20,000 nucleotides of DNA from an uncultured virus (IMG/VR IMGVR_UViG_3300022836_000006) (IMGVR_UViG_3300022836_000006); one strand, 5' to 3'; counted from the stretch's first letter, positions 3,129-20,000 are shown. Made by a program: numbers and translations. Notes: generated from the sequence alone by a model not told the origin.

Positions 3129-3130
3129 GA

Positions 3131-4807: not shown

Positions 4808-4810
4808 TGA

Positions 4811-5020: not shown

Positions 5021-5021
5021 G

Positions 5022-5372
5022 TTAGATTTCCCCTATGAATAATTCGCCTGCTCCAAGGCGGGTGAGTCCCAGCCTTTCCAAGTATTGGTAATATGGTGAC
5101 GTTGTCTCTGTGGGCAAGATAATGCGGGCGTGGCCAAGGTCGCGCATGGTCTGTCTGATGTGGCAGAAAACCTTGAACGAAACCATGGGGGTCTGGGCTG
5201 AGTGAACCCACATAAACACGGCCGGTGCGTAGACCGTCGAGAAGGCAGCGATGATCTGTCCTTGGTCATCTGATACAGCATGGCTAACGCATGGCACGTT
5301 GTGACCATCCATCACCATCAGGTTGTGGACATAGGCCGACTCGACCGGGGTGGTTATCTGGTATGTTTTCAT
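5022..5372 (-). CDS. hypothetical protein, possibly GNAT-like fold
   Basis: 116 aa overlapping TerL stop (ATGA); C-terminal ..YLERLGLTR resembles the GNAT terminal motif (weak). Confidence 0.55.
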   Translation of the reverse strand: MKTYQITTPVESAYVHNLMVMDGHNVPCVSHAVSDDQGQIIAAFSTVYAPAVFMWVHSAQTPMVSFKVFCHIRQTMRDLGHARIILPTETTSPYYQYLERLGLTRLGAGELFIGEI

Positions 5373-6976
5373 CGGATACTTCTGGGGGCGCGGGCGCGGG
5401 GTCTGTTGATTGCACCATGGTTGGATCTGATGCCCGTCTTGGCCTGTGGGTTGAGCCCGGTCTTGGGCTTGGCTGGGATGGCTGATCGGTCGGTGAGGTA
5501 GCCACCTTTGATCGCTTGGTGAATGTAGCCAAAGGCTGTGCTGAAGTGGGATGCCCAGTCATGCACCGGCACGTTGCGCACACTCTGCCCGTCGCTCTCC
5601 TCCTTGGACCTGAACGCATCCAATGCATCGATACCGCCCTCGCACCCGTCGAGGTTGAAGGCACAGCGGGCGATGGATGCCAGACCTTGGTTGATGTTGT
5701 CCCACTCATTGATATTGCGGGCCATGCAGACGGTGTGGTCGAGGCCTGCCCTGATCAGCTGGCCTTGGTAGTCCACTGCAGCGTCATGTGGGAGGAAGTG
5801 ACCACCGTAGTTGAATGGCAGCGCCTTGATGCGTTTGGCCCATGCACCGGCGTGGTTGCAGTCGTCCCCACCCGTCAGGGACAGCAGCAGGTTGATGCGA
5901 TCACCCACCACTTGGAAGAACCACACCTTGGTGTTCCACGGTGCGCCGATGTCCCATGCCGTGTAGACCGGGAGTGCATCGTAGTGCAGCACCATGTTGT
6001 TGATCCGGCCATCACCCCGGGCCTTGTCCACATCTGATGCGTAGATGGCACCCGGGAATGGGGCACGCCAACACTCCTCAATGGTGCTGGGATACTCCGA
6101 GTAGATCATGCGCTTCAGGCTGACCTTCTTTTTGAAATACCAGAGGCGCTGGCCACCACTCAGCTCGATGCCCAGCTGCGTCTCAAGGTCATCCAGATAC
6201 TTGACCACCTTGGGCGGGATCTGGGAGACGTCGCCCTCCAGCGTGTATCGAGGCTCCAAATACCAGCCAAAGAACAGCACCTTGTAGTCGATCTTGGTCC
6301 GGTGCTCTGGTGAGACGGTCAATGCATCAGTGACCAGATCATACCATGCTCCCCCTTTACCACCCTTGTGCGTCGACTCGAAGATCACGATGGCGCTCTC
6401 CCCTGAGGCCGATGGCACAGCACCTGTCAGGATCTCTTCCGCCCGCTTTGGATCGTTGAAGGCGATGATGCCGAACTCTGAAACGTGGACATACTGATTG
6501 GTCGCACCCCGGGCATTCTTGCCGGCATACACTGCCGAGTCATTGGCCCAGCCTAGGGCGCTCTGGTTGTCCTCGGTCAGTGCGTCCCGTAGCTCTTGGG
6601 GCAGCCGATCATAGGCATACTTGACCATCTTGAGCTTGTTGGCGGCATCGTCGTGGGTCTTGTCCACGATGGAGCAGTTGGTGTCGTTGGTGAACAGTGA
6701 GGTGTCCAGCGCGATGATCGCCGCTAGGGTGGTGATGCCAAGCTGACGAGCCTTTGGGACGGCAAGGCGCTGCTCATGGTTGATGAACAGCTCATAGAGC
6801 ACCACGCACTGCGCCCAGTTGGGGACGAACTTGGTCTCCACTCCCTCGGCATTCTTGATCCAGTAGAGGTTACATATCCGAACCAATGGGTCGGTGAGTA
6901 GGTCGGCAACTTGCTCGTCGGTGGCATCGTCGGGTATCCGATAGTCGGCTACGTCGATAGCTTGGTGGGTGTTCAT
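5369..6976 (-). CDS. terL: terminase large subunit
   Basis: 535 aa; Walker A-type KARQLGITT, Walker B VHVSEFG, motif III FESTHKG, nuclease AWDIG, FLPHDA, PVHDWASH. Confidence 0.93.
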   Translation of the reverse strand: MNTHQAIDVADYRIPDDATDEQVADLLTDPLVRICNLYWIKNAEGVETKFVPNWAQCVVLYELFINHEQRLAVPKARQLGITTLAAIIALDTSLFTNDTNCSIVDKTHDDAANKLKMVKYAYDRLPQELRDALTEDNQSALGWANDSAVYAGKNARGATNQYVHVSEFGIIAFNDPKRAEEILTGAVPSASGESAIVIFESTHKGGKGGAWYDLVTDALTVSPEHRTKIDYKVLFFGWYLEPRYTLEGDVSQIPPKVVKYLDDLETQLGIELSGGQRLWYFKKKVSLKRMIYSEYPSTIEECWRAPFPGAIYASDVDKARGDGRINNMVLHYDALPVYTAWDIGAPWNTKVWFFQVVGDRINLLLSLTGGDDCNHAGAWAKRIKALPFNYGGHFLPHDAAVDYQGQLIRAGLDHTVCMARNINEWDNINQGLASIARCAFNLDGCEGGIDALDAFRSKEESDGQSVRNVPVHDWASHFSTAFGYIHQAIKGGYLTDRSAIPAKPKTGLNPQAKTGIRSNHGAINRPRARAPRSIR

Positions 6977-6985
6977 AGATTGGTC

Positions 6986-7369
6986 CTACCTCTTGCCCTT
7001 GCGGATCCGGTAGAGCAGCGAGCCTTCAACCTTCAGCTCCATCTTCTCGGGTGCATCGTAGCCACACATCTTGGCTGTGCGCTCAATGGCTGATATCTTG
7101 TCCCGGTTGGTGGCCTTGGGTGACTGGGCTATTCCGGCCAGCAGTTCGAGCGACTTGGCCCGGTCGAGCATCTTGGCTTTATCCTGCTTCGCACGCTCTG
7201 TGGCCATGTATACCCGCACCCCCTTGTGGGCAACAAGGTCCACTGCCTTCCTCGCTACTGCCCTTGTGCTGCCCCGGGTGTTGTAAGCCCCCCGGTAAGC
7301 GTCCGAACCAGTGCTGCCCTTGAGGATGAAATCGGCGAACGCGATCTGCTTGGCTGATAGAGGTCTCAC
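6986..7369 (-). CDS. terS: terminase small subunit
   Basis: 127 aa immediately upstream of terL; LSAKQIAFADFILKG.TGSDAYRGAY HTH-like N-terminus and DKISAIE..AKM.G C-terminal motif. Confidence 0.8.
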   Translation of the reverse strand: MRPLSAKQIAFADFILKGSTGSDAYRGAYNTRGSTRAVARKAVDLVAHKGVRVYMATERAKQDKAKMLDRAKSLELLAGIAQSPKATNRDKISAIERTAKMCGYDAPEKMELKVEGSLLYRIRKGKR

Positions 7370-7707
7370 TTGGATTCAGGGGATGGAGGGCCGTAACGAG
7401 GGCGGACTAGGGCGAATGTGAACGCCCCGTCTATCCACCTGACGATGCTGTAGCCGCAATCGAATACGGCTGCTAGGAGATTCCAGACTGGGAGGATTGC
7501 TGCTACTGATCTGCCTAGGACTGCCCCAATGGTGAGCTGGGGGTTGTAGTATTTCTCTGTGCAGTTCTGGGTGTCTAGCTTCCAGCCTCTGACGCAGCGT
7601 CCGCTGTAGCAAATGGTGCAGATGGTGAGGGGTAACCAGTAAAGGAATACAGCGAGGAGGCTGTTGAATTCGAATGATGTGAGGAGGTGGAATATGCGGT
7701 CGAACAT
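7366..7707 (-). CDS. small membrane protein (113 aa)
   Basis: Likely start ATG 7707 (MFDRIFHLL) just after the upstream stop, rather than 7785; two hydrophobic segments; stop overlaps terS start. Confidence 0.6.
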   Translation of the reverse strand: MFDRIFHLLTSFEFNSLLAVFLYWLPLTICTICYSGRCVRGWKLDTQNCTEKYYNPQLTIGAVLGRSVAAILPVWNLLAAVFDCGYSIVRWIDGAFTFALVRPRYGPPSPESK

Positions 7708-7714
7708 GATGGTC

Positions 7715-9397
7715 TTAATTGTTGTTGAACGTTGTGAAGGTGGGGCCGGTGGCTCCGTGGCTGATAGTGGTGCCTCCCATGGCAATGTTGTTGCCGCACT
7801 TGTTGGTGGAGGAGGCCTTGAGCTGGTTGTAGCTCAGCCACGTGGATGAATTGGTGTTTGATAGGACTCCACTGATCAGCACGTCCTCCATGGTCAAACT
7901 ACCTTGTGATCCTCCCGGGGTGAGGTAGATGGCTTCGTTGCCTCCGTTGGGGATTTCGATGGAGGTGTTGGCGATGGTGAGTCCTATCCAATTGGTGCCT
8001 GATGCTGTTTCGTCGATGGCTACTCCCCGATAAAATGCTGTATCCGTTTCGCGGATGCTGCCACCAATGATCGCCACGCTGCTGAAGTCTCCGATGTAAA
8101 TTCCCACGACACTCTTGATGTCATCTATTACGTTTTCCGAGCACGTCACATTGTCCGCTCCTGTGATGCGGATTCCGTAGCCTGAGTAGTATCCAACATC
8201 CCCTGTGATCATGTTGCCACGCAGCTGGATCTGCTCTGGTCGCCCGCCTGACTCTTTGACCACGATGATCCCGGACTGTTTGACCTGACTGATCACGTTG
8301 GACTCGACCATGATCTGCTTGGTATCTGCGAGAATGGCGATGCCTCTGCCCCATGCTGAGATTGCAATGGTTGCAGTTGCGCCGGATCCGCCTCCACCGG
8401 TGAACCCCACGGTGATTGCTGCAGCTACTGCGTCAGTGTGTCCGGTGCCGGAAGTGGTGATCAATACCAGCCTGACGATGCCCCCCGTCACTACTGCTGT
8501 AGCTGCTACTCCAGCCGGTGCTCCGGTCAGGGTTACGGTTGGTGCTGTCGTATAACCTGTGCCTCCTGCTGTGACTCCGATGGTCATAACATCCCTTCGG
8601 GCTCGACAGATGTTGTTCGAGATTAGCACGTCCTGACTTTCACTGCATGCGATGATGTCGTCGTCGCAGCCAAGTATCATGTTATTGGATATGACTGCGT
8701 GCAGCAGGTTCTTTGTGTTGATCCCGTCTGCGTAATTGTTGCCGACTAAGTTGTGGTGGCAGTTGAGGCCGATCATCGGATCAGTGGAGAGGTCTCTGCC
8801 CCCCCCGAACTGGAATGCAAACTCACCTGAGTTGATTACTTCATTGTCGTAGAAACTGCAGTAGTCTGCATCGACTACCACTGCCTGCTGGCCCGGTTTC
8901 CGGTAGACGCAATTGCCATCAAAGGTCATGCCGCAGATGGTCACGAATACACAGTCCTCATCGACATCCAGCACCCTCCCGCCTGTGGTTGCGGGGTGAT
9001 CATAGGTGCCGTCAGATACCGCTGATGTCCCGGTATTGCGTAGCGTGCTTACCCCTTTCCCTTCCCCCTTTATTGTGATTCCGGTCAGGTTCGATATGGC
9101 CACATCTCCAAGGTAGACACCGGGAGGGAAATACAGGACAGAGTCGTCGGTCATTGCTGCCACTGCTGCGTCAATCGCTGTCCGATCATCGGTGGCACCA
9201 TCACCCACTGCGCCGTGGTCCTTTACGTTGATCCACCCCAGCTCGGTCATGGTGATGTCACCTGAGCCACCACCACCACTGCTGGTGGGCGTGCCTCCCT
9301 TTGCTGCGTTGCCTCCATCACTGGGCACGTCAGGTGCTGGGCCTGCTATGGCGCGATCTCTGAGCGTCGAGCCTGAGCTGTTGGTGCTAATGGCCAT
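7715..9397 (-). CDS. parallel beta-helix / pectin-lyase-fold protein (tailspike or depolymerase-like)
   Basis: 560 aa; WINVKDHGAVGDGATDDRTAIDAA...VLYFPPGVYL N-terminal signature plus repeated ISNN/DGI beta-helix rungs. Confidence 0.82.
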   Translation of the reverse strand: MAISTNSSGSTLRDRAIAGPAPDVPSDGGNAAKGGTPTSSGGGGSGDITMTELGWINVKDHGAVGDGATDDRTAIDAAVAAMTDDSVLYFPPGVYLGDVAISNLTGITIKGEGKGVSTLRNTGTSAVSDGTYDHPATTGGRVLDVDEDCVFVTICGMTFDGNCVYRKPGQQAVVVDADYCSFYDNEVINSGEFAFQFGGGRDLSTDPMIGLNCHHNLVGNNYADGINTKNLLHAVISNNMILGCDDDIIACSESQDVLISNNICRARRDVMTIGVTAGGTGYTTAPTVTLTGAPAGVAATAVVTGGIVRLVLITTSGTGHTDAVAAAITVGFTGGGGSGATATIAISAWGRGIAILADTKQIMVESNVISQVKQSGIIVVKESGGRPEQIQLRGNMITGDVGYYSGYGIRITGADNVTCSENVIDDIKSVVGIYIGDFSSVAIIGGSIRETDTAFYRGVAIDETASGTNWIGLTIANTSIEIPNGGNEAIYLTPGGSQGSLTMEDVLISGVLSNTNSSTWLSYNQLKASSTNKCGNNIAMGGTTISHGATGPTFTTFNNN

Positions 9398-9819
9398 TAG
9401 TTGCGGGTGTTCAGGTTTTTCCAGTGCCAGACGTGGTGAAGCTCTGGTCGCCCGCCTTCACCTGTGATGATATGGGTCTCTGGCTCCGTCCGCAGGACCA
9501 TGGCTACGTCATCCCAGCACACCCACACCGTTTGCCCGTCTTGCGACCGCTCGTTTAGGTGATTTTTAATCGATTCCTCCGATTGCTTCTGCCCGGTGTG
9601 GACCCGAATTGTCTCTGCCGTCAGCTCACACAATTTCGCCACGTAGTTGTCGGCAATCTTGGTCGCAAGCACTCGGGTCAGGCCTTCATCTTCCACGACT
9701 TGGAAGCTGGATCGCTGCTCGGTGGTCTCATCGAGGATGGTCATGCCTAGGACATTGGCCAGTTTCAGGCTGCTAGGCAATGATGATTGATGCGCTGCAA
9801 AGTCTGGAGGAGCGGACAC
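9397..9819 (-). CDS. hypothetical protein (start uncertain: GTG 9819 or ATG 9744)
   Basis: Stop overlaps next start (TAATG at 9399-9395), implying translational coupling. Confidence 0.6.
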   Translation of the reverse strand: MSAPPDFAAHQSSLPSSLKLANVLGMTILDETTEQRSSFQVVEDEGLTRVLATKIADNYVAKLCELTAETIRVHTGQKQSEESIKNHLNERSQDGQTVWVCWDDVAMVLRTEPETHIITGEGGRPELHHVWHWKNLNTRN

Positions 9820-9882
9820 ACTTCACCTAAGCAGATGAAGTGTGATGATTCGTGCAAATGCAGTTATCGCGTATCACTTTAC

Positions 9883-10127
9883 CCGTAGCAAATCCCCCCG
9901 GCATACGTCCAATTCAAGGGTGTAATTAGCTGAGTCGGTGGCACAGGATTTACGCCTGCCGTCTGGATCATTGTATCCGGTCCAGTCCGCTGCGGTCGCG
10001 ACCCGCTTGCCAAAACCGCCTGAGAGGGACCACCGACTCAGCCAATTACATGCTACGGTCCTCAGCTCTTTCGAGCACGTAGAATTAAGTCCGGTTGGTA
10101 GTAGTGTATTCAGGCCGGACACCGTAG
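9883..10127 (-). ncRNA. candidate structured non-coding RNA downstream of tRNA-Met
   Basis: 22-bp stem (10050-10029 with 9942-9921) whose non-canonical pairs are G-U only on the minus strand; internal hairpins incl. T-arm-like GCAGG-CGUAAAU-CCUGU; outer CCGUAGCA/UGCUACGG stem; GCUC-GAAA-GAGC hairpin. Confidence 0.6.
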
Positions 10128-10135
10128 ACAGGCAT

Positions 10136-10211
10136 TGGTAGCAGAGGAGGGATTCGAACCCCCGACTTCCAGATTATGAGTCTAGCGATCTAACCGCTGA
10201 TCTACTCTGCA
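10136..10211 (-). tRNA. tRNA-Met (CAU), CCA encoded
   Basis: UGCAGAG UA GAUC AGCGGUUA GAUC G CUAGA CUCAUAA UCUGG AAGUC GGGGG UUCGAAU CCCUC CUCUGCU A CCA; full 76-nt cloverleaf. Confidence 0.95.
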
Positions 10212-10324
10212 ACAATGGCCTGTCATGCCTCCCGGGTGGCGCTCTTGCGAGGTTCGAGCCTTGGGGAGGGGTTCCAGTGGCTATCGCTGAGAGCTGGGAT
10301 CAGTGACCATTCTTCGTGGTTGAG

Positions 10325-10356
10325 CCACTAAGATCGGATCCGCCCTCCAATGTAAA
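10325..10356 (-). promoter_or_regulatory. putative promoter for tRNA/late arm (TTTACA-N19-TTAGTGG)
   Basis: Same motif and 19-nt spacing as upstream of the capsid gene; also directly after a terminator. Confidence 0.45.
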
Positions 10357-10360
10357 CACC

Positions 10361-10392
10361 AAAAAGCCCCAGCCAATGAAGGCCGGGGCTTT
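10361..10392 (-). terminator. intrinsic terminator-like hairpin
   Basis: Minus strand AAAGCCCCGGCC-TTCATT-GGCTGGGGCTTTTT, with a G-U pair and a U-tract in this orientation. Confidence 0.7.
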
Positions 10393-10501
10393 AAGGAAAA
10401 ACGATCACTGTATGCGATAACGCCCCAATTTCTGGGGCCGGCTGCCACCGTCTGCAAGCTAAAATGCAGGTGAGTTTACCACTGTCAGAACACTTTCTTC
10501 A

Positions 10502-10528
10502 TATAGCAGTGATTTAATTATTGCTATA
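10502..10528. promoter_or_regulatory. operator-like inverted repeat in the divergent intergenic region
   Basis: TATAGCA-N13(AT-rich)-TGCTATA between the two transcription arms. Confidence 0.4.
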
Positions 10529-10612
10529 CCGCAGCAGGTATGATCCAGATGGAGGCCACGTCAGTCACTGCTTCGCTCACAACGAGGCTTCACCTCCCAA
10601 ATAACTCAGACC

Positions 10613-11005
10613 ATGAAGTCCTTCAAGATTCTTTCCCGCCACCCCACCCTCGCCGCCGCTGTTGCAGCTGCTGGCATCGATCTCTCATACAATGAGCCTG
10701 AAGCCCGCCGCGAAATCGCCACCACCGACAAGCAGGTGCTGGAGGCCTTCATCGTCGAGAAGTATGGCGAACCTATTGTCCTGTATGTCTACGACTGCGA
10801 CATCCGCCTTTTGAACACGTTCACCCCGTTTTCCAGTTGCCTGTCCGGCAGTGACTTTGGGGTGGCTGCACTGAGCACGGACGGCACCGAGATCGTTGCC
10901 ACCGAGGCTTCAGTTCGATACAGCCGCAACTGCATTTATCGCGTCCAATCAACCCAATGCATTTCCAAGATTGGTGCGATCTGGGCCACCAAAGATTTCT
11001 GCTAA
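10613..11005 (+). CDS. hypothetical protein (first early gene)
   Basis: 130 aa ORF with phage-like codon usage; first ORF of the plus-strand arm. Confidence 0.7.
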   Translation: MKSFKILSRHPTLAAAVAAAGIDLSYNEPEARREIATTDKQVLEAFIVEKYGEPIVLYVYDCDIRLLNTFTPFSSCLSGSDFGVAALSTDGTEIVATEASVRYSRNCIYRVQSTQCISKIGAIWATKDFC

Positions 11006-11087
11006 CCCTCCCACCTGCCTGACCCCTGCCCTGACCCTAGCCCGGTCGGGGGTTTCGGGTGCCCGCTTCTGGGCATCCCTTAATCTT

Positions 11088-11339
11088 ATGAAACAATCCC
11101 CCACCATCATCCACGCATGCCAAGTGCTGCGCTCTCGCGTTGCCTACAAGACGGCAGGTCTTCGGCTCAAAAAATCGTCCCTCATGAACACCGAACGCGA
11201 CACCAAGGCCATCCAGCAGGCCACCGAGCGTTACCGCAATTCGTGGATCGATCCGATCATCGATGCCATCGAGACGGGTGACCTGAAGATGCTCAAGGAT
11301 CTCACGGAACTCGAATCTGGAACCCACATCGAGTCATGA
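11088..11339 (+). CDS. hypothetical protein (83 aa)
   Basis: Start moved to ATG 11088 (MKQSPTII); stop overlaps next ATG (ATGA). Confidence 0.65.
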   Translation: MKQSPTIIHACQVLRSRVAYKTAGLRLKKSSLMNTERDTKAIQQATERYRNSWIDPIIDAIETGDLKMLKDLTELESGTHIES

Positions 11340-11734
11340 GCCAAGTCATCCCAGCCCGCCACGAACTGGTGCTGATGTTCCCACCCTCCTCGTCGTGGGA
11401 CAGCGTCCCCTACCCGATGAAACGCTACAGGGGCGCACTCACCACCATCGCGGACATCCCCTTTGGATCAATGCAGAAGGCGCGAATAGTCCACCTCTGC
11501 GTTCGCCGCAACATGGAGGCAGCGATCCACGACGGAGCTGGGAACAGGGCAGCCCGCCGGGAGGTGATCATCATCACCGATCAGCTCCAGCGCATCCGCC
11601 TCGCAAGAGGCTACCATGCCACCCTTAGCGCCGTCACCTACTGGGCAGACACACCTCGCCCCACACCTCAATCTGCCCGCCCTCTCCTCATTAACCCACA
11701 TGGAGACATCGAGTCTTCAGAACCCTCCCTGTAA
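11336..11734 (+). CDS. hypothetical protein
   Basis: 132 aa, ATGA-coupled to upstream gene. Confidence 0.6.
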   Translation: MSQVIPARHELVLMFPPSSSWDSVPYPMKRYRGALTTIADIPFGSMQKARIVHLCVRRNMEAAIHDGAGNRAARREVIIITDQLQRIRLARGYHATLSAVTYWADTPRPTPQSARPLLINPHGDIESSEPSL

Positions 11735-11741
11735 TATCATT

Positions 11742-12602
11742 ATGACTACATCATCCCCCACCATCATCGTGTCCGCTTTGGATGCGATCACTACCACTGC
11801 CACTGAGGCAGCTATTTCCCGACGTGACGAGTTGCTTGCAACCTGCTCACGTGGACGAAGTGTGCCGACTGCCGAGTCTGCTACCAAGGCCACCGAGGTT
11901 CTGCGGGAAGTCACCACTTTCACGCGCACCATCGAAGCTGCCCGCAGGGATGCCAAAGCGCCGGTCCTAGCTCTGGGCAAGCGCATCGACGCCGTGGCCG
12001 CAGATCTGACCGCTGAGCTCACGGCTGAGTTGGGCCGTATCAATTCGCTAGTGAGCGAGTTCAATGTCACTGAGCAGCGCCGGGCTGCTGAAGAGCGCCG
12101 GAAGGCTGCTGAAGAGCAAGATCGCATCTACCGTGAAGCTGAGCAGAAACGCTTGGACGAAGCTGAAGCTGCCCGTGCTGTTGAGGCTGCTGCCAAGGCC
12201 AAGCAGGATGAGTTGGCGCTGAAGGCATCCCGGGCCAAGTCTGAGGAGCGCCGGGCTGTGCTGGAAGCGCAAGCTGCCAAGGCCAAGGCCAAAGCTGAGG
12301 CTGATGCCGTGATCGAGGCTAAGCGCATCAAGGCTGAGAAGGATCGCGAGGCGCAGGAAATGGCCGCAACCCATGTTGCCGTCGCCATGGCCCAGCCCGT
12401 GAAGGCAGCCGGCACCGCTCTGCGGATGGAGACCAAGTTCGAGATCACCGACATCTACGCATTGTTCGATGCAGTCCCCGGCATGGTCATCCTCACCCCC
12501 AACAAGGCCGCGATCAAAGCCCAGATCAAGACCCTGCCTGAGGGTGCTTCCCTCCCCGGGGTCAAGCACTGGCAGGAGGCTAAAACCACCATCCGCTCGT
12601 AA
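11742..12602 (+). CDS. coiled-coil protein, Gp157/Gam-like phage recombination-module family
   Basis: Start ATG 11742; long Ala/Glu/Lys heptad region, IEAAR...KAPVL..GKRIDA and C-terminal KFEITD...PNKAAIKA.IK....LPGV signature. Confidence 0.7.
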   Translation: MTTSSPTIIVSALDAITTTATEAAISRRDELLATCSRGRSVPTAESATKATEVLREVTTFTRTIEAARRDAKAPVLALGKRIDAVAADLTAELTAELGRINSLVSEFNVTEQRRAAEERRKAAEEQDRIYREAEQKRLDEAEAARAVEAAAKAKQDELALKASRAKSEERRAVLEAQAAKAKAKAEADAVIEAKRIKAEKDREAQEMAATHVAVAMAQPVKAAGTALRMETKFEITDIYALFDAVPGMVILTPNKAAIKAQIKTLPEGASLPGVKHWQEAKTTIRS

Positions 12603-12772
12603 TGAAATACGCACTACGCTCCATTTGGATCCGCTACAATATCACGATGAGCCATGCGGCCAAATTCCTCTCCGACTCTCTCGGTGCCACTGCCTCTGCG
12701 CATTGGAATCGTGCTCAGAAATCAACTGTCGCTTCTCTCAATGAGACGCGAGTAAACCTCGAAATACGCTAA
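12602..12772 (+). CDS. small hypothetical protein (56 aa, not in ORF track)
   Basis: MKYALRSIWIRYNITMSHAAKF...VNLEIR; TAATG overlaps at both ends, exactly filling the gap. Confidence 0.65.
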   Translation: MKYALRSIWIRYNITMSHAAKFLSDSLGATASAHWNRAQKSTVASLNETRVNLEIR

Positions 12773-13179
12773 TGAAGAATCACACCCACAACCTCAAAAC
12801 TCCTGCCGGCCATATCCGGCTCGATGTGCGCCAGTTCGTTGGCCAGCGCACGATACCCAAGGAGCACGTGACCAACATGACCAACTCCGAACTGATCGCT
12901 GAGATCAAAGACGAGACGGGTGATCTGGTTATCCAGAACATCCTGCGCGTGCCCGGCAAAGAGTTCGACAGCAAGGTCGTCTCCTACGGCACCACGTGGT
13001 GGGACGCTTGGAAGATTGCCCACCCCCGGCTCGCTAAGCTGTTCCGCATGGAGCGTCCTCGCGTGACCGTGGCCTCCATCACTGCCAACTCCTTCTACCC
13101 ATCCCTGCGCGTGCCCAATCACAAGGCATTCGTGCAGGTAACGCTAGGTAAGCGCACGGGGACTCTCGATGACTACTAA
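12772..13179 (+). CDS. hypothetical protein
   Basis: 135 aa, TAATG-coupled. Confidence 0.7.
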   Translation: MKNHTHNLKTPAGHIRLDVRQFVGQRTIPKEHVTNMTNSELIAEIKDETGDLVIQNILRVPGKEFDSKVVSYGTTWWDAWKIAHPRLAKLFRMERPRVTVASITANSFYPSLRVPNHKAFVQVTLGKRTGTLDDY

Positions 13180-13414
13180 GGGAAAACCACATCACAATCA
13201 GAAGGGCACGGCACCCCGGGTCCGGCTGGGTGGTGGTCCGTTCATCGACGTCCGCACCATGGCCAAGTTGAAGGCATGGCGCAAAAACGGAGCATCCTTT
13301 GGCGAGATCATCGACCGTCTAACAACTCTCGCGTGCGATCATGGATTCGATCCAGCAACCCTCGCGTATAACAAGAAAACCAAAAGCAAAGTCCCCAGCA
13401 CTGCTAAGCAGTAA
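13169..13414 (+). CDS. small DNA-binding protein, ribbon-helix-helix-like
   Basis: 81 aa, basic; FIDVRTMAKLKAWRKNGASFGEIIDRL fits a strand-helix-helix pattern. Confidence 0.55.
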   Translation: MTTKGKPHHNQKGTAPRVRLGGGPFIDVRTMAKLKAWRKNGASFGEIIDRLTTLACDHGFDPATLAYNKKTKSKVPSTAKQ

Positions 13415-13489
13415 CCGGGGACAATCACGTCGGTCCCAAATAAAAGACCGAGGTGAGTCATCCATAACGTCAGTTAAAATACAATCAAA

Positions 13490-14224
13490 ATGAGTTCAGC
13501 AATTATCACTATCACCCAAATCCTTGCGCTGGTCCCCGGCCCTAAGGGCAAGGCAACTTGGATCAACGAGGAGTTCGACGCTCTCGTCTCCTTCGTCAAG
13601 CAGGACGACAAGAAGGCGGACATCATCCTCCACGACACCAATCAGCCTCAGATCCAGATCGCGGCTACCGTCTGGGGTCGCAACTGCCAGAGCTACCACG
13701 GCACGGTCTGCCACCTCAGCGGCGCTGGCATGTCCCGCACTGAGTTCAAGCAGACCCCTCAGGTCAGCATCGGCGAGAAAGCCGTGATCCAAGTTCTGGG
13801 GAATGCCCCGAACGGGATGGCGGCACCTGCACCTTCACCACAGACGGCACCCGCTGCCTACGTGCCTCCTGTCGCTCCTGCGCCACGCACCCACGCACCC
13901 AAGCCCATCCACGGTGCTACGGTGGGGATGGCCATCAATCAGGCCTGTGGCTTGATCAAGGTCACGCTGGGTGGCATGTCGGACACCTCTGCATTCGGCT
14001 ACCTTCAGTCGTCGGCCTTCTCGAAGGACATGCATGGGCTGGCCAGTGACATCCTGCGGGTGTCAATGCACCTTGAGGCTGGTAACCTTGCCCCGAGTGC
14101 GAAGGTTCGGGAAACGGCTCCTGCTCCTGCTCCGGCTCCTGCTCCTGCTCCTGCTCCCTATCTACAGGATCCGAAGCCCGCATTCCCGGTAGATGACAAC
14201 CTCGACGAAGACGTCCCATTCTAG
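13490..14224 (+). CDS. single-stranded DNA-binding-like protein
   Basis: OB-fold-like beta-rich N-terminus (IQIAATVWG...LSG....EFKQTPQVSIG), Pro/Ala linkers, acidic tail DDNLDEDVPF like the SSB C-terminal motif; adjacent to exonuclease. Confidence 0.65.
   Translation: MSSAIITITQILALVPGPKGKATWINEEFDALVSFVKQDDKKADIILHDTNQPQIQIAATVWGRNCQSYHGTVCHLSGAGMSRTEFKQTPQVSIGEKAVIQVLGNAPNGMAAPAPSPQTAPAAYVPPVAPAPRTHAPKPIHGATVGMAINQACGLIKVTLGGMSDTSAFGYLQSSAFSKDMHGLASDILRVSMHLEAGNLAPSAKVRETAPAPAPAPAPAPAPYLQDPKPAFPVDDNLDEDVPF
14117..14158 (+). repeat. 6-bp tandem repeat x7 encoding (Ala-Pro)7 linker
   Basis: GCTCCN x7 within the SSB-like gene. Confidence 0.85.
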
Positions 14225-14225
14225 T

Positions 14226-15059
14226 ATGAACGACTCATCACATTGGTATGATCGTGAGGGCAACCCCTGTCATACCCAAGCCACCAAGAAGGGGGCCAAG
14301 AATCCTACCCGGGCCACCACCGTCCGTGACGCACGGAAACTGGACCTGTTGGGATCCACCAGCGGCATGCTCGACGTGCTCAGCAAGGACGCTCTGATCC
14401 GCTGGAAGCTTGAGCAGGTCACGAAAGCGTGCTTCGCCGACGGTCATATCTCCTCCTCATACGTCTACCTGACGCCCGAGCAATACCACGAAAAAATGGT
14501 CGATCAGGCCTTCACCAAGGTGGAGCAGGCAGCTGATGCTGGGACTCTCATTCATGCCGCGCTGGACTTAGCATTCCAAGGCGCTGAGTGGGATCACGAT
14601 CAGCAGGTCTTCCTGCCTGAAACTGGATCGGTCGAACCCATGAGCACATTTATCCTGCCCACCCTCGGATGGCTCACTGCCAACGAGGTCGTGGCCACCG
14701 GATACGAGCAGGTCGTGGTCAACGACAAGGAAGGCTACGCTGGCACAGCTGACCTGCCCTACACCCGGCGCAGTGCAGTGGGTGTAGGTGACTACAAGAC
14801 CCGCAAGACCAAGGTCGGAATGCCCGTGAAGGCCTACGACACGCAAGCGATGCAGATCGCCTCCTACCTCGCAGGATTGAATGACAATGTCATCCCAGAG
14901 GGTGCCGAGGGGTTCAACTTGTTCATCTCCACCACCGAACCGGGCCGTATCGAGGCAGTCTGGTATAACCAATCTGAACTCCAGAAAGCATGGGAGGCAT
15001 TCAAGGCCTGCTGTGCAATCTGGCGCTTCCAGAAAAACTACGATCCTCGGATCACTTAA
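14226..15059 (+). CDS. PD-(D/E)XK exonuclease
   Basis: Start ATG 14226; AADAGTLIH, YEQVV...GYAGTADL, GDYKT, MQIASY motifs. Confidence 0.85.
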   Translation: MNDSSHWYDREGNPCHTQATKKGAKNPTRATTVRDARKLDLLGSTSGMLDVLSKDALIRWKLEQVTKACFADGHISSSYVYLTPEQYHEKMVDQAFTKVEQAADAGTLIHAALDLAFQGAEWDHDQQVFLPETGSVEPMSTFILPTLGWLTANEVVATGYEQVVVNDKEGYAGTADLPYTRRSAVGVGDYKTRKTKVGMPVKAYDTQAMQIASYLAGLNDNVIPEGAEGFNLFISTTEPGRIEAVWYNQSELQKAWEAFKACCAIWRFQKNYDPRIT

Positions 15060-15091
15060 TCCCCCGCACAGGCGGAACAACAACCCATAAA

Positions 15092-15706
15092 ATGAAGATC
15101 CTAAAAGTAATCCGTGATAATAATTTCGTGCAAATCAAGCACGAGGTTCAAGGCTATCAAGCCGTCGAAGAACGCGACATCAAAGCGCATGAGGCTCCCC
15201 TCAAATCGTTTGACGATGCACTACAGGCACTCGCCCCTGTCGTCGTCAAATTGCTGGAGTATCCACCATCCAGCAGCTCAACCATCGTGATCAAAAGCAT
15301 CTCGGTGTCCCACACCACCAAGGGCACTCGCTCCGTGGGCATCAGCTTCCGAAAGAAGCTCAACGCAACTGGCAACTATCACCCCATGAGCACCCCAATG
15401 GTGCAGTTCGATGACGCAGCTGAAGGAGAGGGCAACCGCAAGGAAGTCCACGCATCCCATGCGGCACTGATCGACCTGTCTATCGCTGAGGCCATCCGGT
15501 ATTCCGAGGGTGAGCGTCAGCAGGCCTTGCTACCTCTCGACGATGTCGGAAGTCCGGTCTCGCCAGCTGATGGGGACGAGCTGCGTTACGATACCGCCCC
15601 TGCCGGCGATGATGGAGAGGACAACGTCGAGAAGTTCCCTCCTGCCAAGAAGAAGGCACCTGCCAAGAAGAAGGCACCTGCCAAGAAGACCATCGCTAAA
15701 GCCTAA
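15092..15706 (+). CDS. hypothetical protein with acidic linker and histone-H1-like PAKKK tail
   Basis: Start ATG 15092 (MKILKVIRD); ends PAKKKAPAKKKAPAKKTIAKA. Confidence 0.72.
   Translation: MKILKVIRDNNFVQIKHEVQGYQAVEERDIKAHEAPLKSFDDALQALAPVVVKLLEYPPSSSSTIVIKSISVSHTTKGTRSVGISFRKKLNATGNYHPMSTPMVQFDDAAEGEGNRKEVHASHAALIDLSIAEAIRYSEGERQQALLPLDDVGSPVSPADGDELRYDTAPAGDDGEDNVEKFPPAKKKAPAKKKAPAKKTIAKA
15641..15689 (+). repeat. 18-bp tandem repeat x2.7 (PAKKKA)
   Basis: CCTGCCAAGAAGAAGGCA twice plus 13 bp of a third copy. Confidence 0.9.
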
Positions 15707-15719
15707 CCCTTAAACGCTC

Positions 15720-15751
15720 CCCGGGTGCGTCAACCCGGGCCTTTTTCTTTT
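15720..15751 (+). terminator. intrinsic terminator
   Basis: CCCGGGT-GCGTCA-ACCCGGG then CCTTTTTCTTTT, just after the stop at 15706. Confidence 0.7.
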
Positions 15752-16120
15752 ATGTCTACTACCCACCTCCCAATCGAACGCCGTCTCTTCATTTCCCAAG
15801 CTAGTGGATGGAGTGACTTCAGGCAAATCGGTGATCGCCTCTTTGGCGTCCCCCCCGGTCATGTCCCGCTTAACGAGTGCGACAAGTTCCGACTCGTCCC
15901 AGACTACGACGTGGATCTCGATGCCTGCCATGCGGCCGAGAACCTGATGAAGGAGTCCCTCGGTGATGCCTACGCTATCACCCTGCGGATGGTTATCCGT
16001 GAGCGTTACCGGAAGGTGAACAAACCCCATTCGAGCGTCCCAGCATGGCGCAACTACAGCGCCACCGCTTCTGAGCGGACCGAAGCAATCTGCCGCCACC
16101 TCCAACCCAACCCCCAGTAA
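15752..16120 (+). CDS. phage protein, ABA-sandwich/NinX-like family
   Basis: Start ATG 15752; VPDYDVDLDACHAAE and ATASERTEAIC motifs. Confidence 0.6.
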   Translation: MSTTHLPIERRLFISQASGWSDFRQIGDRLFGVPPGHVPLNECDKFRLVPDYDVDLDACHAAENLMKESLGDAYAITLRMVIRERYRKVNKPHSSVPAWRNYSATASERTEAICRHLQPNPQ

Positions 16121-16125
16121 TCATC

Positions 16126-16524
16126 ATGTCCCAGACCCTAGGCCAGTTCGTCGAGTCGGCCATCTTCGACGCCAAGAAAGCGGGCAAGCAATTCCCCCGG
16201 GGAGTGTTCGCCCTTGAAGTAGACAAGCTCCATGCCGCTTGGCTGGTTCAGGACCAGTTCAAACTCGAGGAGGATTGGCCCAAGAATAAGTTCCCCCCCC
16301 CGCACGAAGCAGTGACGCAATACGCGCAGAGCATTGGCTACCCGCTCGACGGTCGATCATTCTGCGACTCCTACGGTCAAAAGGGCTGGTTAGTTGGCAA
16401 GGCCAAGATGAAGGACTGGCAAGCCGCCGTGCGTAATTGGAAATCAAACACGTGGGGCGTGCTCATCACTGCCTCCAGAGCTGCCGACAACAACAACCAA
16501 GCCCGCGACTACACCCAAGTATGA
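16126..16524 (+). CDS. replication-initiator C-terminal-domain protein
   Basis: FPPP.EAV..YA.....DG.SF.D.Y..KGW.VGK.KMKDWQAAVRNW motif; ATGA-coupled to the DnaC-like ATPase. Confidence 0.7.
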   Translation: MSQTLGQFVESAIFDAKKAGKQFPRGVFALEVDKLHAAWLVQDQFKLEEDWPKNKFPPPHEAVTQYAQSIGYPLDGRSFCDSYGQKGWLVGKAKMKDWQAAVRNWKSNTWGVLITASRAADNNNQARDYTQV

Positions 16525-17441
16525 CCACCGAAATCACTATCGATCCTGAGGCAGAAGAAAAAGTTCTGGCACTACGAAATCAGCGTGATGCCTTCCGCGA
16601 AGCTAAGCCCAACTGCGACCGAGTCGTCTTCATCCCGGGTGGTGGCAGCATCCCACACTGTGGAGTCGCTGACATTAACGAGGTTGGCGGACTCAACATG
16701 TTCCACTTGGCTGAACTCCACCGGAACCCTGACCACCCCATGAATGAGGTAATCGACGGGGAGTGCTCGCAGGGATGTGGGACCAAGTTACGGATGTCCC
16801 GCTTCTGGATGCCTAAGACAGCTTGCGATGAGTGCCGGGCCAAGGCCATCGAGGATGCCATGAACGATGAATGCAGAAAGGAATGGGAGCGTGTATGCCC
16901 GAAGCAACTACGTGACACCGACTCCAACCACCCGGGCTTCCCTAAGCATATCTATCGCGAGAACATCGGCTACGATGGGAACAGCAGCCTCTTCCTGTTT
17001 GGCCCCACAGGGTCAGGGAAATCACGCTGTGGTTCCCTCCTGATGAAGCGGGCATTGATGAAGCGCAAGACGGTTAACTTTCTATGGCCGGAAGAGCTGA
17101 AGGCCTATGCCAAAAGCAACAACGAGCGCCTCAAGTTCATCCGCGAATACGGATCAACCAATGTGCTGCTCATGGATGATGCGCTGCTGACTGGCGCTCA
17201 GGACGAACGCATCGCTGACTTTTTGAAAGACCTCATCGACTTCATGCAGCGCCACGGAAACCAGATGATCATCACCAGCCAGATCGGTGGCGAAGATTAC
17301 GAAGAGCAGGCCAACAAATTCGGCAACATCACCAAGACCGACCGGGAGCGCATCGATGCCCTGATGCGCCGGATCCGTGAATCATTTAAGGTCATCCCCT
17401 TCGTCGCCTCATCTGCACCTGAAAACAAGGAGATGTTCTGA
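16521..17441 (+). CDS. DnaC/IstB-like AAA+ ATPase (helicase loader)
   Basis: Start ATG 16521; Cys cluster CSQGC...CDEC, Walker A LFLFGPTGSGKS, Walker B VLLMDD, IITSQ, RRIRE. Confidence 0.82.
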   Translation: MTTEITIDPEAEEKVLALRNQRDAFREAKPNCDRVVFIPGGGSIPHCGVADINEVGGLNMFHLAELHRNPDHPMNEVIDGECSQGCGTKLRMSRFWMPKTACDECRAKAIEDAMNDECRKEWERVCPKQLRDTDSNHPGFPKHIYRENIGYDGNSSLFLFGPTGSGKSRCGSLLMKRALMKRKTVNFLWPEELKAYAKSNNERLKFIREYGSTNVLLMDDALLTGAQDERIADFLKDLIDFMQRHGNQMIITSQIGGEDYEEQANKFGNITKTDRERIDALMRRIRESFKVIPFVASSAPENKEMF

Positions 17442-17767
17442 TGAGTAAATCCACCAAAAGCGTGAAGGTCAAAGCGGTGCCGGGTGAGATCCTGCGCTAC
17501 CAAGTCGAGAGCTGGGGCCGGGCCGATCTCCACCACATCGTTGACCTCATGGAGCAAGGCGGAAACGGGGAATGCGGTTGCACCGACTTCAGGATGCAAT
17601 GCACGACCAACTGGAAGGAGAACGGGGGCGCGTGGGTGCTCTACGGTTTCCCGGGTCACCCTGATCCTAAGCGCACCCAATGCAGGCACATCTACTGCGC
17701 CCGCATGAAGTTCACCAACGACACTCTCAAGCTCCTGTCCAAACAGCAGGCGCAACCCCAGTCATGA
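17441..17767 (+). CDS. SWIM-type zinc-finger protein
   Basis: YQVES.....HIVDL......ECGCTDF...CRHI pattern. Confidence 0.7.
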   Translation: MSKSTKSVKVKAVPGEILRYQVESWGRADLHHIVDLMEQGGNGECGCTDFRMQCTTNWKENGGAWVLYGFPGHPDPKRTQCRHIYCARMKFTNDTLKLLSKQQAQPQS

Positions 17768-18021
17768 GCAAAGGTGTCGGTCGGATCTGCTCATTCTACC
17801 CTGACCCCAACATGGTCAAGCAGTGCGTGGTGCAACCCGGCGCTCAGCGCCTCACCGGGGTCGTCACCGAATGCGTCAAGGCTCCTCCTCCTAAAGGATG
17901 GAAGCGCCCAGACTTTACTCTAACTGTGCGTGGCAAATCCGGTCGCACCGTCACCATCAGCCTCATCGAAAACTACGCCCAGTTCCACGCAACGTGGCCT
18001 GCATCATCCCAATCCAAATGA
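17764..18021 (+). CDS. hypothetical protein (85 aa)
   Basis: Start ATG 17764 (ATGA overlap with upstream stop); its stop overlaps next start. Confidence 0.6.
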   Translation: MSKGVGRICSFYPDPNMVKQCVVQPGAQRLTGVVTECVKAPPPKGWKRPDFTLTVRGKSGRTVTISLIENYAQFHATWPASSQSK

Positions 18022-18470
18022 CTACTCCGATCCAAACATTAACCAACGCCGAAATCATCGCAGAGATGTGCCGATTGTTGCGCCTCCTATCCAAGCGGGC
18101 CGACGCCGCCATGCCGGTCCATTCTCCCGATCGCTCCGCGAACAAATTGATCCTTATACAACAGGCGATTTGCGACGTGTTACGCACTCCGATCGCGGTC
18201 ATGTCATCCCGAGCCCGACCTGACAACTACGTCCAAGCACGGCACATCGCGATGTTCCTGAGCCGCGAGCTGACCGAATACTCCATGCAAGATATAGCCA
18301 AATCGTTTCGCCCGACAATGAACCACTCCACGATCACTCATGGCCACAGAGCGTGCCTCGATCGCATGATGCACGTCAAAGGATTTGAGTCGCTTGTCGA
18401 TGCCTGCAAACAACGGGCGCTGAAGCTAATCGACAACGCCGGCCTCCCCCTCTTCCAGCAATCGTTGTGA
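18018..18470 (+). CDS. DnaA C-terminal (domain IV) HTH protein
   Basis: Start ATG 18018; S..R....VQARHIAMFLSRELTEYSMQDIAKSF....NHSTITHG matches the DnaA domain IV consensus. Confidence 0.8.
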   Translation: MTTPIQTLTNAEIIAEMCRLLRLLSKRADAAMPVHSPDRSANKLILIQQAICDVLRTPIAVMSSRARPDNYVQARHIAMFLSRELTEYSMQDIAKSFRPTMNHSTITHGHRACLDRMMHVKGFESLVDACKQRALKLIDNAGLPLFQQSL

Positions 18471-18841
18471 AAAACATTAAATCCCTATTCCCAAATGCCT
18501 CCCCTTCCTTCCTCAAACTCAACGGTCTTCCGGATGACGTGCCAACACCGAGTCCCAAGCCTAAACGCGCTGTTCGCTCTAAACCATTGGGGGCGACTAA
18601 AGTTAAAAAAAGAGATTCAAGCTTCTATGTTGTCCGGATTAAAAGCTTCCGAGTCCGATTGCTCGACACAGACAACCTCATTCCGAAGTGGCATGTTGAT
18701 GCCCTCCGCTACGCTGGAATCATACCTGATGACTCGCCGGAGCTTGCCGACATCACGACGACACAAGAAAAAGTCGCCACCAAAGCCGAAGAGCGCACCG
18801 AAATCGAAATCACGCGACACCTAGAACGCCCGGCACTGTGA
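18467..18841 (+). CDS. rusA: RusA-like Holliday-junction resolvase, catalytic part
   Basis: RLLDTDNLIPK..VDAL..AGIIPDDS...Q.K.....ERTEIEI carries the RusA DxDN..K..D.L...DD motif; GTGA overlap with upstream gene. Confidence 0.75.
   Translation: MKNIKSLFPNASPSFLKLNGLPDDVPTPSPKPKRAVRSKPLGATKVKKRDSSFYVVRIKSFRVRLLDTDNLIPKWHVDALRYAGIIPDDSPELADITTTQEKVATKAEERTEIEITRHLERPAL
18495..18824 (+). CDS. nested +1-frame ORF encoding a RusA-N-terminus-like segment
   Basis: VFRMTCQHRVPSLNALFALNHWGRLKLKKEIQASMLSGL resembles the RusA-family strand-PSxN-helix N-terminus missing from the other frame. Confidence 0.55.
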   Translation: MPPLPSSNSTVFRMTCQHRVPSLNALFALNHWGRLKLKKEIQASMLSGLKASESDCSTQTTSFRSGMLMPSATLESYLMTRRSLPTSRRHKKKSPPKPKSAPKSKSRDT

Positions 18842-19035
18842 TCACATGCATCCCAAACGTCAGGCGGCTCTATTGCTCCTTTTTCGGTCATGCAAAGCAG
18901 CACGTAATCGACACCTACCCATCCCCAACCCAAGTTCCCGCCTATCCCCGGGCCGAAACCGTGAAGGTCTTGTGCCCTCGATGTCGGCTCATCTACATCA
19001 CCAAAGTGTTCACCCTCCATCCCCCATCAAAATAA
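18838..19035 (+). CDS. small Cys/His protein (C.FFGH...CxRC, DUF1660-like)
   Basis: 65 aa, GTGA overlap; RRLYCSFFGH...CPRC. Confidence 0.55.
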   Translation: MITCIPNVRRLYCSFFGHAKQHVIDTYPSPTQVPAYPRAETVKVLCPRCRLIYITKVFTLHPPSK

Positions 19036-19042
19036 GAACCAA

Positions 19043-19324
19043 ATGAACCCTAACCTAATAGACCTCCTACAGCGCGTCCAAACTGGCCACGCGACCTGTA
19101 TGTTTGCGGCGAAAGAGATCGAAGCCAATGAGGAAAAACTCCTCGGCCTAATTGAATCGGCTGCAAACCGGCTCGAAACGATACAGGAAACCGACACCAC
19201 TGGGCTACAACTGGCCGCCGACATTAAGCGCCTTCGCGCAGTGTTTCGGTCTGCGAACAACACTATGAGACACGGGCCTGACGCGCCCGAAAACAAAAGC
19301 GGCGAACCACCGTTGTCTCGATAA
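19043..19324 (+). CDS. hypothetical protein whose C-terminus is encoded by att-like site 1
   Basis: 93 aa; reads through AAC 19256-19258 in frame and stops inside the hairpin's right arm. Confidence 0.65.
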   Translation: MNPNLIDLLQRVQTGHATCMFAAKEIEANEEKLLGLIESAANRLETIQETDTTGLQLAADIKRLRAVFRSANNTMRHGPDAPENKSGEPPLSR

Positions 19325-19335
19325 TCTGGTTCAAC
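19252..19335. mobile_element. attC-like recombination site 1
   Basis: TGCGAAC-aacac-TAT GAGACA CGG...CCG [T] TGTCTC [G] ATA-atctg-GTTCAAC: AAC/GTT cores, 5-nt unpaired spacers, two extrahelical bases. Confidence 0.8.
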
Positions 19336-19344
19336 TTTTTTACT

Positions 19345-19713
19345 ATGAAACCGATACTCAAATACGATGGTGACCGCGCCGAATCAGCGGCGTGCCTTTT
19401 AACAGACCTCGACGAGTTCGATGGGGAGTCTGCCGACGCCCAACGCATGATCGAAGAAGCGATGGCCTGCGAGGTTCAGCGAGTGCTCAAACGGATAACC
19501 CGGCACACGGAAAACGAAGGCGTCTACGGATGGAGGGTAGTGTTCGATTACGATAACATCCATGACGGGGCGCGGATTCTTGACGGAGACGGCCACTCGA
19601 TGGCGGAGTGTTATGAGAAGGGCGAGCCGGACGATCAATTCGTGAGGGCGATAGACTCACTCATTCGCGGCCCGTTGAACAACGAGGTCAGACGCGACCC
19701 GTCGAAGGCTTAA
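19345..19713 (+). CDS. cassette-borne hypothetical protein
   Basis: 122 aa between sites 1 and 2; reads in frame through AAC 19678-19680 and stops in the loop of site 2. Confidence 0.7.
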   Translation: MKPILKYDGDRAESAACLLTDLDEFDGESADAQRMIEEAMACEVQRVLKRITRHTENEGVYGWRVVFDYDNIHDGARILDGDGHSMAECYEKGEPDDQFVRAIDSLIRGPLNNEVRRDPSKA

Positions 19714-19802
19714 AACCTCAACCAACCAATAAAAATGTCATACCAAAATAAAATGTCAGAAGCCGGACAGCGAGGGTCGTTGTCTGAAGTGGTTTGTTAT
19801 GC
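19674..19802. mobile_element. attC-like recombination site 2
   Basis: GTTGAAC-aacga-GGT CAGACG CGACCC...GGGTCG [T] TGTCTG [A] AGT-ggttt-GTTATGC; same spacing as site 1 with a compensatory G-C to C-G change. Confidence 0.8.
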
Positions 19803-20000
19803 TCAGATTGGCATCGACTGCTGCAATCAACCGATAATCCCAACGCGTGCCAAGCTGTCGATGCACACCAATCGGCACACCAGCACGTCAGGAAACTCGT
19901 GGGGATGGGTCGATGGTTGCTCGCTAAACATATGCTGGTCAAACGACGGCGAGAAATTCAACAGAAAAAAGGCCGCTGAACTGGTTGCTTTGCATAACAA
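19735..20000 (+). CDS. cassette-borne hypothetical protein (partial, not in ORF track; start 19735 or 19753)
   Basis: MSYQNKMSEAGQRGSLSEVVCYAQIGIDCCNQ...KKAAELVALHN, open to the window edge; starts inside the loop of site 2. Confidence 0.7.
   Translation, partial: MSYQNKMSEAGQRGSLSEVVCYAQIGIDCCNQPIIPTRAKLSMHTNRHTSTSGNSWGWVDGCSLNICWSNDGEKFNRKKAAELVALHN
19992..20000. mobile_element. left core of attC-like site 3 (truncated)
   Basis: GCATAAC-aa is the exact reverse complement of site 2's right core GTTATGC, followed by the same 'aa' as sites 1 and 2. Confidence 0.7.

Follow-up and report, generated by a model that had tools for sequence, protein, structure and literature searches.

The stretch of DNA analysed here (20,000 nt, one strand, from the uncultured virus IMGVR_UViG_3300022836_000006; hereafter the window) ends on its right side in three consecutive plus-strand open reading frames (ORFs) that run through a series of candidate attC sites, the recombination sites of integron cassettes. 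The first-pass annotation had noticed that the core AAC of these sites is read by all three genes as an in-frame Asn codon, and this holds at positions 19256–19258, 19678–19680, and 19996–19998. The first ORF (19043–19324), encoding 93 aa, is the last gene upstream of the array; its reading frame passes the first junction at Asn codon 19256–19258 (..RSA-N-NTMRHG..) and reaches the stop codon (19322–19324) 22 codons further on, with the 21-residue tail and the stop encoded by attC site 1. The second ORF (19345–19713), encoding 122 aa, reads ..GPL-N(19678–19680)-NEVRRDPSKA and stops at 19711–19713, 11 codons past the Asn, both the tail NEVRRDPSKA and the stop coming from attC site 2. These two genes therefore find their stops, at 19324 and 19713, only inside the following site, as had been proposed. 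The third gene (gene 3, 19735–20000), with ATG codons at 19735 and 19753, starts inside the loop of site 2, reads through its right arm and GTT (..GSLSEVVCYA..), again in agreement with the annotation, and leaves the window after ..ALH-N(19996–19998). Its product in the window's phage, represented by contig L080 and hereafter called phage A, is 99 aa long and ends outside the window.

The sites share one architecture on the gene strand: xxxx-AAC, a spacer of 5 nt, an 8-nt arm, a variable stem-loop, the complementary arm, 5 nt and GTT-xxxx, with the 3' arm of the L box carrying one extra base after the fifth pair. attC site 1 (19252–19335, plus strand, equivalent to the attC bottom strand) comprises the R' core AAC (19256–19258), the 5-nt spacer, arm TATGAGAC (19264–19271), arm GTCTC[G]ATA with its one extra base (19315–19323), spacer ATCTG and the R'' core GTT (19329–19331); its arms form 8/8 pairs plus the bulge. 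Site 2 (19674–19802, plus strand) has a long loop, which contains the stop codon of the 122-aa gene and the start codons of gene 3. It consists of AAC (19678–19680), spacer AACGA, arm GGTCAGAC (19686–19693), inner stem GCGACCC/GGGTCG, arm GTCTGA[A]GT (19782–19790), spacer GGTTT and GTT (19796–19798), and its arms form 6/8 pairs. The window ends within the first bases of site 3A (19992–20000, plus strand; AAC 19996–19998), the remainder of which lies in L080 (4020–4107, reverse-complemented). The published description of the attC bottom strand includes AAC in R', extrahelical bases near L'', an unpaired central spacer and a variable terminal structure, and places cleavage between A and C of the bottom-strand AAC (PMC5027507). 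AAC and GTT at this fixed geometry are present in sites 1 and 2 and in every other phage site listed here. An early motif, AAC-N7-TSAGAS...STCTSA-N8-GTT, caught site 2 alone in the phage A record and was replaced by the description in terms of spacer, arm and bulge.

Phage A carries four sites, two of them complete within the window. Five such sites are located in a second phage, phage B (G003 35539, 36862, 37180, 38140, and 38752), represented by records G001–G003, which are 99.8–100% identical to one another; one additional site is present in L079, a near-identical variant of phage B, and four further IMG/VR contigs hold sites of this architecture. The geometry scan (AAC, 5 nt, 8-nt arm, complementary arm with one extra base, 5 nt, GTT), for which 8/8 arm pairs were required, gave one match (site 1) in the 38.3 kb of phage A against 0.1 expected from 30 shuffles, and three matches in the 46.5 kb of phage B against 0.3 expected.

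Phage B also carries a half-site (G003 35201–35290, the same as L009 15201–15290), the right arm of which, AATTGTCTGCATAATCTGGTT, is identical to that of site 3A in phage A. Its AAC is likewise an in-frame Asn codon. In both phages the gene starting in the loop translates this arm as the peptide NCLHNLV, and attC arms therefore also encode N-terminal segments. A viral scan with the right-arm motif of phage A gave 31 loci, of which three were this half-site and 28 were chance matches without a left arm.

Relatives of these sites were found in bacterial chromosomes. A scan of 185,579 species genomes, with a pattern derived from the phage sites, gave 24 loci, and eight of these contain nine complete sites, in metagenome-assembled genomes (MAGs) of Opitutaceae, one Pelagicoccus assembly and one ‘Myxococcales’ MAG; the other 16 loci lack the AAC geometry and are about as many as we estimated for chance. 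The integron integrase IntI scores above the TIGR02249 cut-off in four of five site-bearing genomes (363–373 bits, cut-off 265) and in none of 14 control genomes. Sites of this kind adjoin intI in the canonical direction at L054 6414–6466 and L055 4279–4331; the geometry scan revealed them, whereas a narrow regular expression applied beside intI gave no sites. Matches to the site model number 14–78 per host genome; most are on short contigs or at contig ends, a distribution that a large chromosomal integron would be expected to give. The textbook example of such a sedentary chromosomal integron, with homogeneous attC repeats, is the Vibrio superintegron.

Covariance model R1, built from 11 host attC sites only and used as a surrogate for the published models (IntegronFinder, HattCI), matches the phage sites, in all cases on the gene strand: L015 with E 1e-13, phage B site 5 with 7e-13, site 4 with 2e-9 and site 3 with 3e-6, and site 1 of the window with 20.4 bits (E about 1e-3). 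Covariation was analysed on 58 matches, in an alignment fitted to the model, which favours structure: 88.4% of cells are paired versus 28–41% with the partner column slid, both-sided changes occur in 17 of 19 pairs, the covariation score is 0.357 versus at most 0.066 for slid partners, and none of 500 shuffles equalled the observed score. The phage sites belong to the same family as the attC sites of IntI-encoding chromosomal integrons of Opitutaceae-type genomes. A viral scan with the exact host-type site gave no matches.

The host arrays may contain a further kind of site. AAC is absent from the R' (crossover) end of 18 of the 68 host attC matches, with mostly ATC in its place, often in the form ACATATCGCCAA (loci L054, L056, L058, L060–L062, L064, L067–L069, L071, L073, L074, and L076). 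These may represent a non-canonical or disabled class within the chromosomal integron.

Phage genes are encoded on the bottom strand of attC, the reverse of the arrangement in canonical cassettes and in those of the host. The coding strand is confirmed by the N6_N4 methyltransferase that reads through a site in L016, and also by the Dam methyltransferase downstream of a site in L017; these cassette-associated genes give domain matches of 5e-13 (N6_N4_Mtase, L016 2475–3239, minus strand) and 3e-33 (Dam, L017 2538–3014). Because the genes are on the bottom strand, the junction coincides with the left AAC and not with the GTT on the right. The phage cassette consists of the attC site first and then the gene or genes, the last of which crosses into the next cassette.

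The reading frame was tabulated for 17 junctions, namely phage A sites 1, 2, 3A, and 4A, phage B sites 0, 2, 3, 4, and 5, two junctions in L079, one each in L015 and L020, and two sites each in L016 and L017; the phage B half-site is outside this count. At 15 of them a gene of 82–254 aa reads AAC in frame as Asn and stops 2–24 codons later. The 15 read-through genes belong to 13 unrelated families, and the frame is the same in all 15. The host arrays were treated in the same way: the 95 matches were reduced to 68 on the best strand by dropping 27 opposite-strand or partial doubles, and 50 of these were evaluated, 18 being without AAC. Long host ORFs are encoded on the attC top strand and lead into the attC of their own cassette, the textbook arrangement; those of at least 100 codons in this canonical orientation, 16 in number, enter R'' in frames 0, 1, and 2 at 5, 10, and 1 sites, respectively, and just one bottom-strand ORF of this length was found. 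Since the host frames are mixed, the fixed frame is a property of the phage arrays.

The consequence for the proteins is visible in gene 3, which after ..LHN has the tail TTIRQEGQPNE in phage A, KKFRGEESAANAVL in phage B and NVMSQPAKGSENQSEPGPGLAR in L079, because a different attC site follows it in each of the three. Six aligned gene 3 sequences, the phage B copy and five database homologues, have an invariant Asn and unrelated tails; one homologue (P0002) is 99% identical to the gene 3 product through ..LHN and completely different beyond. The tail NNEVRRDPSKA is common to two unrelated proteins, one of 122 aa in phage A and one of 82 aa in phage B, because both genes precede site 2. Three unrelated proteins of L016, L017, and L020 likewise have the common tail N-DEFRGGCKPSSGTSCS, and a pair of homologous proteins of phages A and B ends in ..HFSQN-TKLINKAKPV and ..HFTQN-N, respectively. 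Tail swapping is thus seen directly. The 47 distant relatives of the 122-aa protein have a conserved core that stops about eight residues before the Asn, and their tails all differ; a word-indexed search with this protein found only itself, on 16 contigs. The distance from the stop codon to the next start is 20–24 nt at sites 1–3.

The earlier proposal that rearrangement would replace C-terminal tails while keeping the frame is borne out by these comparisons. Its view of the sites as coding sequence stands as well, with the correction that the tail belongs to the downstream cassette and that the crossover is at the left AAC (AA/C). Three cassette genes had been claimed; the claim applies to the 122-aa gene and gene 3 but probably not to the 93-aa gene. 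A 68% identical homologue of the 93-aa protein (P0008) loses similarity about four residues before the Asn and terminates in ..RLRAAL-PGTPS, with neither the Asn nor the tail. This gene is therefore more likely to be part of the phage backbone, to which the first site has been joined, than a cassette. No related loci of this protein were found among the viral contigs.

Whole cassettes have also changed place. The DNA that phages A and B have in common is limited to two stretches, positions 9883–10126 of the window (84% identity) and 19678–19998(+1) (100%). The second stretch is exactly one cassette, bounded by the AACs of sites 2 and 3 (318 nt plus cores): the identity begins exactly at 19678 and, according to L080, ends at the AAC of the next site, and in phage B the different, unrelated 82-aa gene lies upstream of site 2. 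A second event distinguishes L079, which is phage B at 99.9% identity plus one extra 528-nt unit, made up of a new attC site and two ORFs and inserted at the AAC of site 3, with AACAA on either side. Every directly seen junction, that is, both ends of the cassette common to A and B and both ends of the L079 insertion, is located at AAC, as are three junctions deduced from contig ends. Whole-cassette exchange and insertion with junctions at AAC are thus observed. As recombination units (AA/C to AA/C), cassette 1, the extent of which follows from the crossover rule and the junction at 19678, would occupy 19258–19679 with site 1 and the body of the 122-aa gene, and cassette 2 occupies 19680–19997 (318 nt) with site 2 and the body of gene 3.

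Apart from this cassette, the window and phage B have only the first stretch, of 244 nt, in common. It sits between the block of structural genes and the divergently oriented early genes, and may have a conserved function in regulation or as an origin. A 45-nt direct repeat is present within the first long cassette of phage B; its two copies (G003 36044–36088 and 36572–36616), 93% identical, are 528 nt apart.

Independent contigs from four salt-lake runs were compared. The phage B sequence diverges at 19678 in all four and the phage A continuation diverges at 19999 in two of the four, and the read depth of the shared cassette exceeds that of phage A-specific parts. Both phages are seen in the same runs and therefore co-occur in one community. 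In the contigs of the four runs no joints and no circular-cassette junction were found; contigs cannot reveal rare forms. Three assemblies break exactly 127 nt past a junction; this junction is 19678 for G000 and G001, and for G002 it is the AAC of site 3. These positions would correspond to a branch in an assembly graph with k = 127 and suggest that assemblers break phage contigs at shared cassettes; phage attC arrays are therefore likely to be truncated in databases.

The last 750 bases of the window thus very probably open a cluster of attC sites lacking an integron integrase (CALIN), of the type of Opitutaceae-like chromosomal integrons. Phage A has four sites and no TIGR02249 or PF00589 match in its 38-kb record. 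The phage arrays do not have the canonical cassette layout, a promoterless coding sequence on the attC top strand followed by its own attC, and they do not form a complete integron, in which intI, an attI site and a Pc promoter adjoin the array, no IntI being found in the phage records.

The following mechanism can be proposed. An integron integrase would cut the gene-sense strand between A and C of the 5' AAC; because the cut falls there, the mobile unit would begin with the C of one AAC and end with the AA of the following one, each unit being an attC site followed by one or two genes. The last gene of the unit has no stop of its own and ends in ...AA; the C that completes the Asn codon, the stop and, before it, a tail of 1–23 residues are supplied by the neighbour. 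In a free circular cassette, the cassette's own attC would provide this ending. Given the common frame of all read-through genes, any attC of the pool would terminate any gene, and this frame may be a selected convention that lets it do so. The host IntI could act in trans during infection. Translation into the hairpin may, in addition, couple the expression of the next gene by helping its start; translational coupling by these sites is plausible. A broader proposal can be put forward tentatively: phages may maintain an inverted class of cassettes, with bottom-strand stopless genes and a shared AAC = Asn frame, which host integrases shuffle between co-infecting phages, so that integron recombination would be a regular engine of accessory-gene mosaicism and C-termini would be rewritten at each move.

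Several observations weigh against these interpretations. Neither the phage A record, which is 90% complete, nor four further viral records gave an integron integrase, and phage B encodes nothing closer than a weak generic tyrosine recombinase (24 bits, under the Pfam cut-off); because the phage records hold no integron integrase, the acting enzyme is one that we infer. Gene 3, as a possible trace of cassette flow from host to phage, was not found in 151 searched genomes of the family of G004. The fit of individual sites to the attC model is uneven. Model R1 gives site 2 a partial match (12.8 bits, E 0.37) and, at E up to 1, does not report sites 3A and 4A or the additional site of L079; these three are supported by geometry and junctions. 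The extended RYYY/RRRY consensus is poorly matched on the AAC side (TGCG and GTTG), where the bases before AAC are part of the upstream gene, and the spacer of site 4A has 4 nt. The folding energies of sites 1 and 2 are no better than those of shuffled sequences (z-scores −0.58 and −0.33), although their minimum-energy DNA folds nonetheless display the R and L boxes. Two junctions depart from the frame rule: at a weak site in L016 the upstream gene stops 30 nt before AAC, and a weak site in L017 is ambiguous. The IMG/VR record stops short of the last 196 bases of the window (19805–20000); L080, an independent metagenome contig of 43 kb, confirms them with 100% identity. Finally, the 24 runs listed are without exception salt-lake metagenomes from one year, and the evidence for exchange is for this reason essentially from one community.

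The lack of IntI in the phage records and the mosaic structure of phage genomes would also agree with another explanation, namely that the hairpins are repeats conserved at gene boundaries and that modules are exchanged through ordinary recombination, homologous or illegitimate, with no integron integrase involved. Hairpin repeats that mark mosaic junctions at gene borders are familiar from the promoter/stem-loop elements (PeSL) of T4-type phages and the boundary sequences of lambdoid phages; these act by homologous recombination and carry promoters. Motifs of 15–25 nt common to the sites could seed such exchange. The junctions, however, are all at the 3-nt AAC core and none falls within the longer shared arm motifs, and the sites match the attC of host integrons, with which they are homologous, down to the position of the extrahelical base. 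A scan for promoters and terminators at the sites gave one promoter-like site, on the minus strand, against 0.9 expected, and no terminator-like site on the plus strand; there is thus no promoter or terminator excess, and assignment to the PeSL elements was rejected on these grounds. Gene-boundary repeats are therefore an unlikely explanation.

Slightly less probable again is that a phage-encoded recombinase, be it the tyrosine recombinase of 398 aa in phage B or an enzyme not recognised as such, works these sites independently of the host. Tyrosine recombinases are indeed encoded by phage B and by the record of L016, but none is present in phage A or in the record of L015, which is 97% complete, and the phage B enzyme is not IntI-like, with 24 bits on PF00589 and 19 bits on XerC models. 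It is encoded about 11 kb from the array, beside a helix-turn-helix gene, in the manner of a lysogeny integrase. That nothing special is present, only the common Asn codon AAC next to weak chance palindromes or palindromes acting in RNA as terminators or processing sites, is very improbable: the shuffle-like folding of sites 1 and 2 and the lack of an Rfam match (window 18500–20000, E up to 1) would allow it, but the geometry matches exceed shuffles about tenfold, covariation is strong, cassette exchange is exact, one frame is used by 15 of 15 read-through genes and no terminator-like site occurs on the plus strand. A reading as RNase III or processing sites was dropped, the outer helix having just 3–5 bp and the junctions pointing to DNA recombination.

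The array lies in a podovirus-like phage. Positions 1–19804 of the window correspond to an IMG/VR virus record of 38,086 bases, estimated to be 90% complete. Structural genes, encoding the major capsid protein (PF19821), a T7-type portal (PF12236), the large terminase and a beta-helix tail spike, lie on the minus strand within 85–9819, while early and replication functions, comprising two exonucleases, a DnaC-like loader and a DnaA_C helix-turn-helix protein, are encoded on the plus strand within 10613–20000, together with a RusA-like resolvase (18467–18841, plus strand). Downstream of the last attC site of phage A lies a gene for 119 aa (L080 3232–3591, on the minus strand of that locus), whose weak similarity to HNH endonucleases (E 0.005) does not reach the cut-off.

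The junctions at the canonical crossover are natural evidence that cassettes move as units between unrelated phages of one community. With one fixed frame over the crossover, every attC becomes a universal terminator and the protein tail is altered at each rearrangement. The ends of cassette genes thereby depend on context, which matters for annotation, and pipelines that expect a coding sequence followed by attC on the top strand may miss phage arrays of this kind. The attC family, in turn, points to an Opitutaceae-type host for this uncultured salt-lake phage.

The array can be described as a phage CALIN with inverted, open-ended cassettes; phage CALINs as such and ORF-11 are already in print. 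In a full-text literature search covering texts other than the supplementary tables of Qi et al., neither stopless bottom-strand cassette genes in a common frame nor natural cassette exchange between phages was found described, which is no proof that such reports are absent. Integrase-less attC arrays in phages (17 CALINs) were reported by Qi, Rajabal, Ghaly, Tetu and Gillings in 2023, and five of six phage attC sites recombined with attI1 through IntI1 in their assay (PMC9892861). Recombination of phage attC sites is documented in that report by the laboratory assay only (PMC9892861). The arrays described here resemble those CALINs in being integrase-less, in residing in phages and in having DNA methyltransferase cargo (here L016 and L017). 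They differ in that the published arrays are in isolated phages, the account of them making no mention of natural exchange in its abstract and section 3.4, whereas here one cassette is 100% identical in two unrelated phages and one insertion polymorphism is present. Nor do those parts mention bottom-strand or junction-crossing genes, a point on which the supplementary attC coordinates could bear.

The closest parallel to the open-ended genes is found at attI1, where ORF-11, of 11 codons, spans the crossover and receives its in-phase stop from the inserted cassette, and where the peptide tail of ORF-18 varies with the neighbouring cassette (PMC8876359). The role proposed for ORF-11 is translational coupling and relief of the barriers posed by attC stem-loops (PMC8876359). 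These ORFs are like the phage genes in lying over the crossover and in taking stop and tail from the neighbour. ORF-11, however, is a lone leader peptide at attI1 on the top strand, while here genes of 82–254 aa cross attC × attC junctions on the bottom strand in one frame.

The Opitutaceae-type integrons (G004–G007) are closest in the sites themselves, which there read AAC, 5 nt, GTTCAGAS, stem, STCTGA[A]AC, GTCTG, GTT, with the extrahelical base at the same position. Their genes, in contrast, are on the top strand in mixed frames, and those of the phages are on the bottom strand, all in frame 0; the attC sites of the hosts are nearly identical to one another, whereas the loops of the phage sites are diverse.

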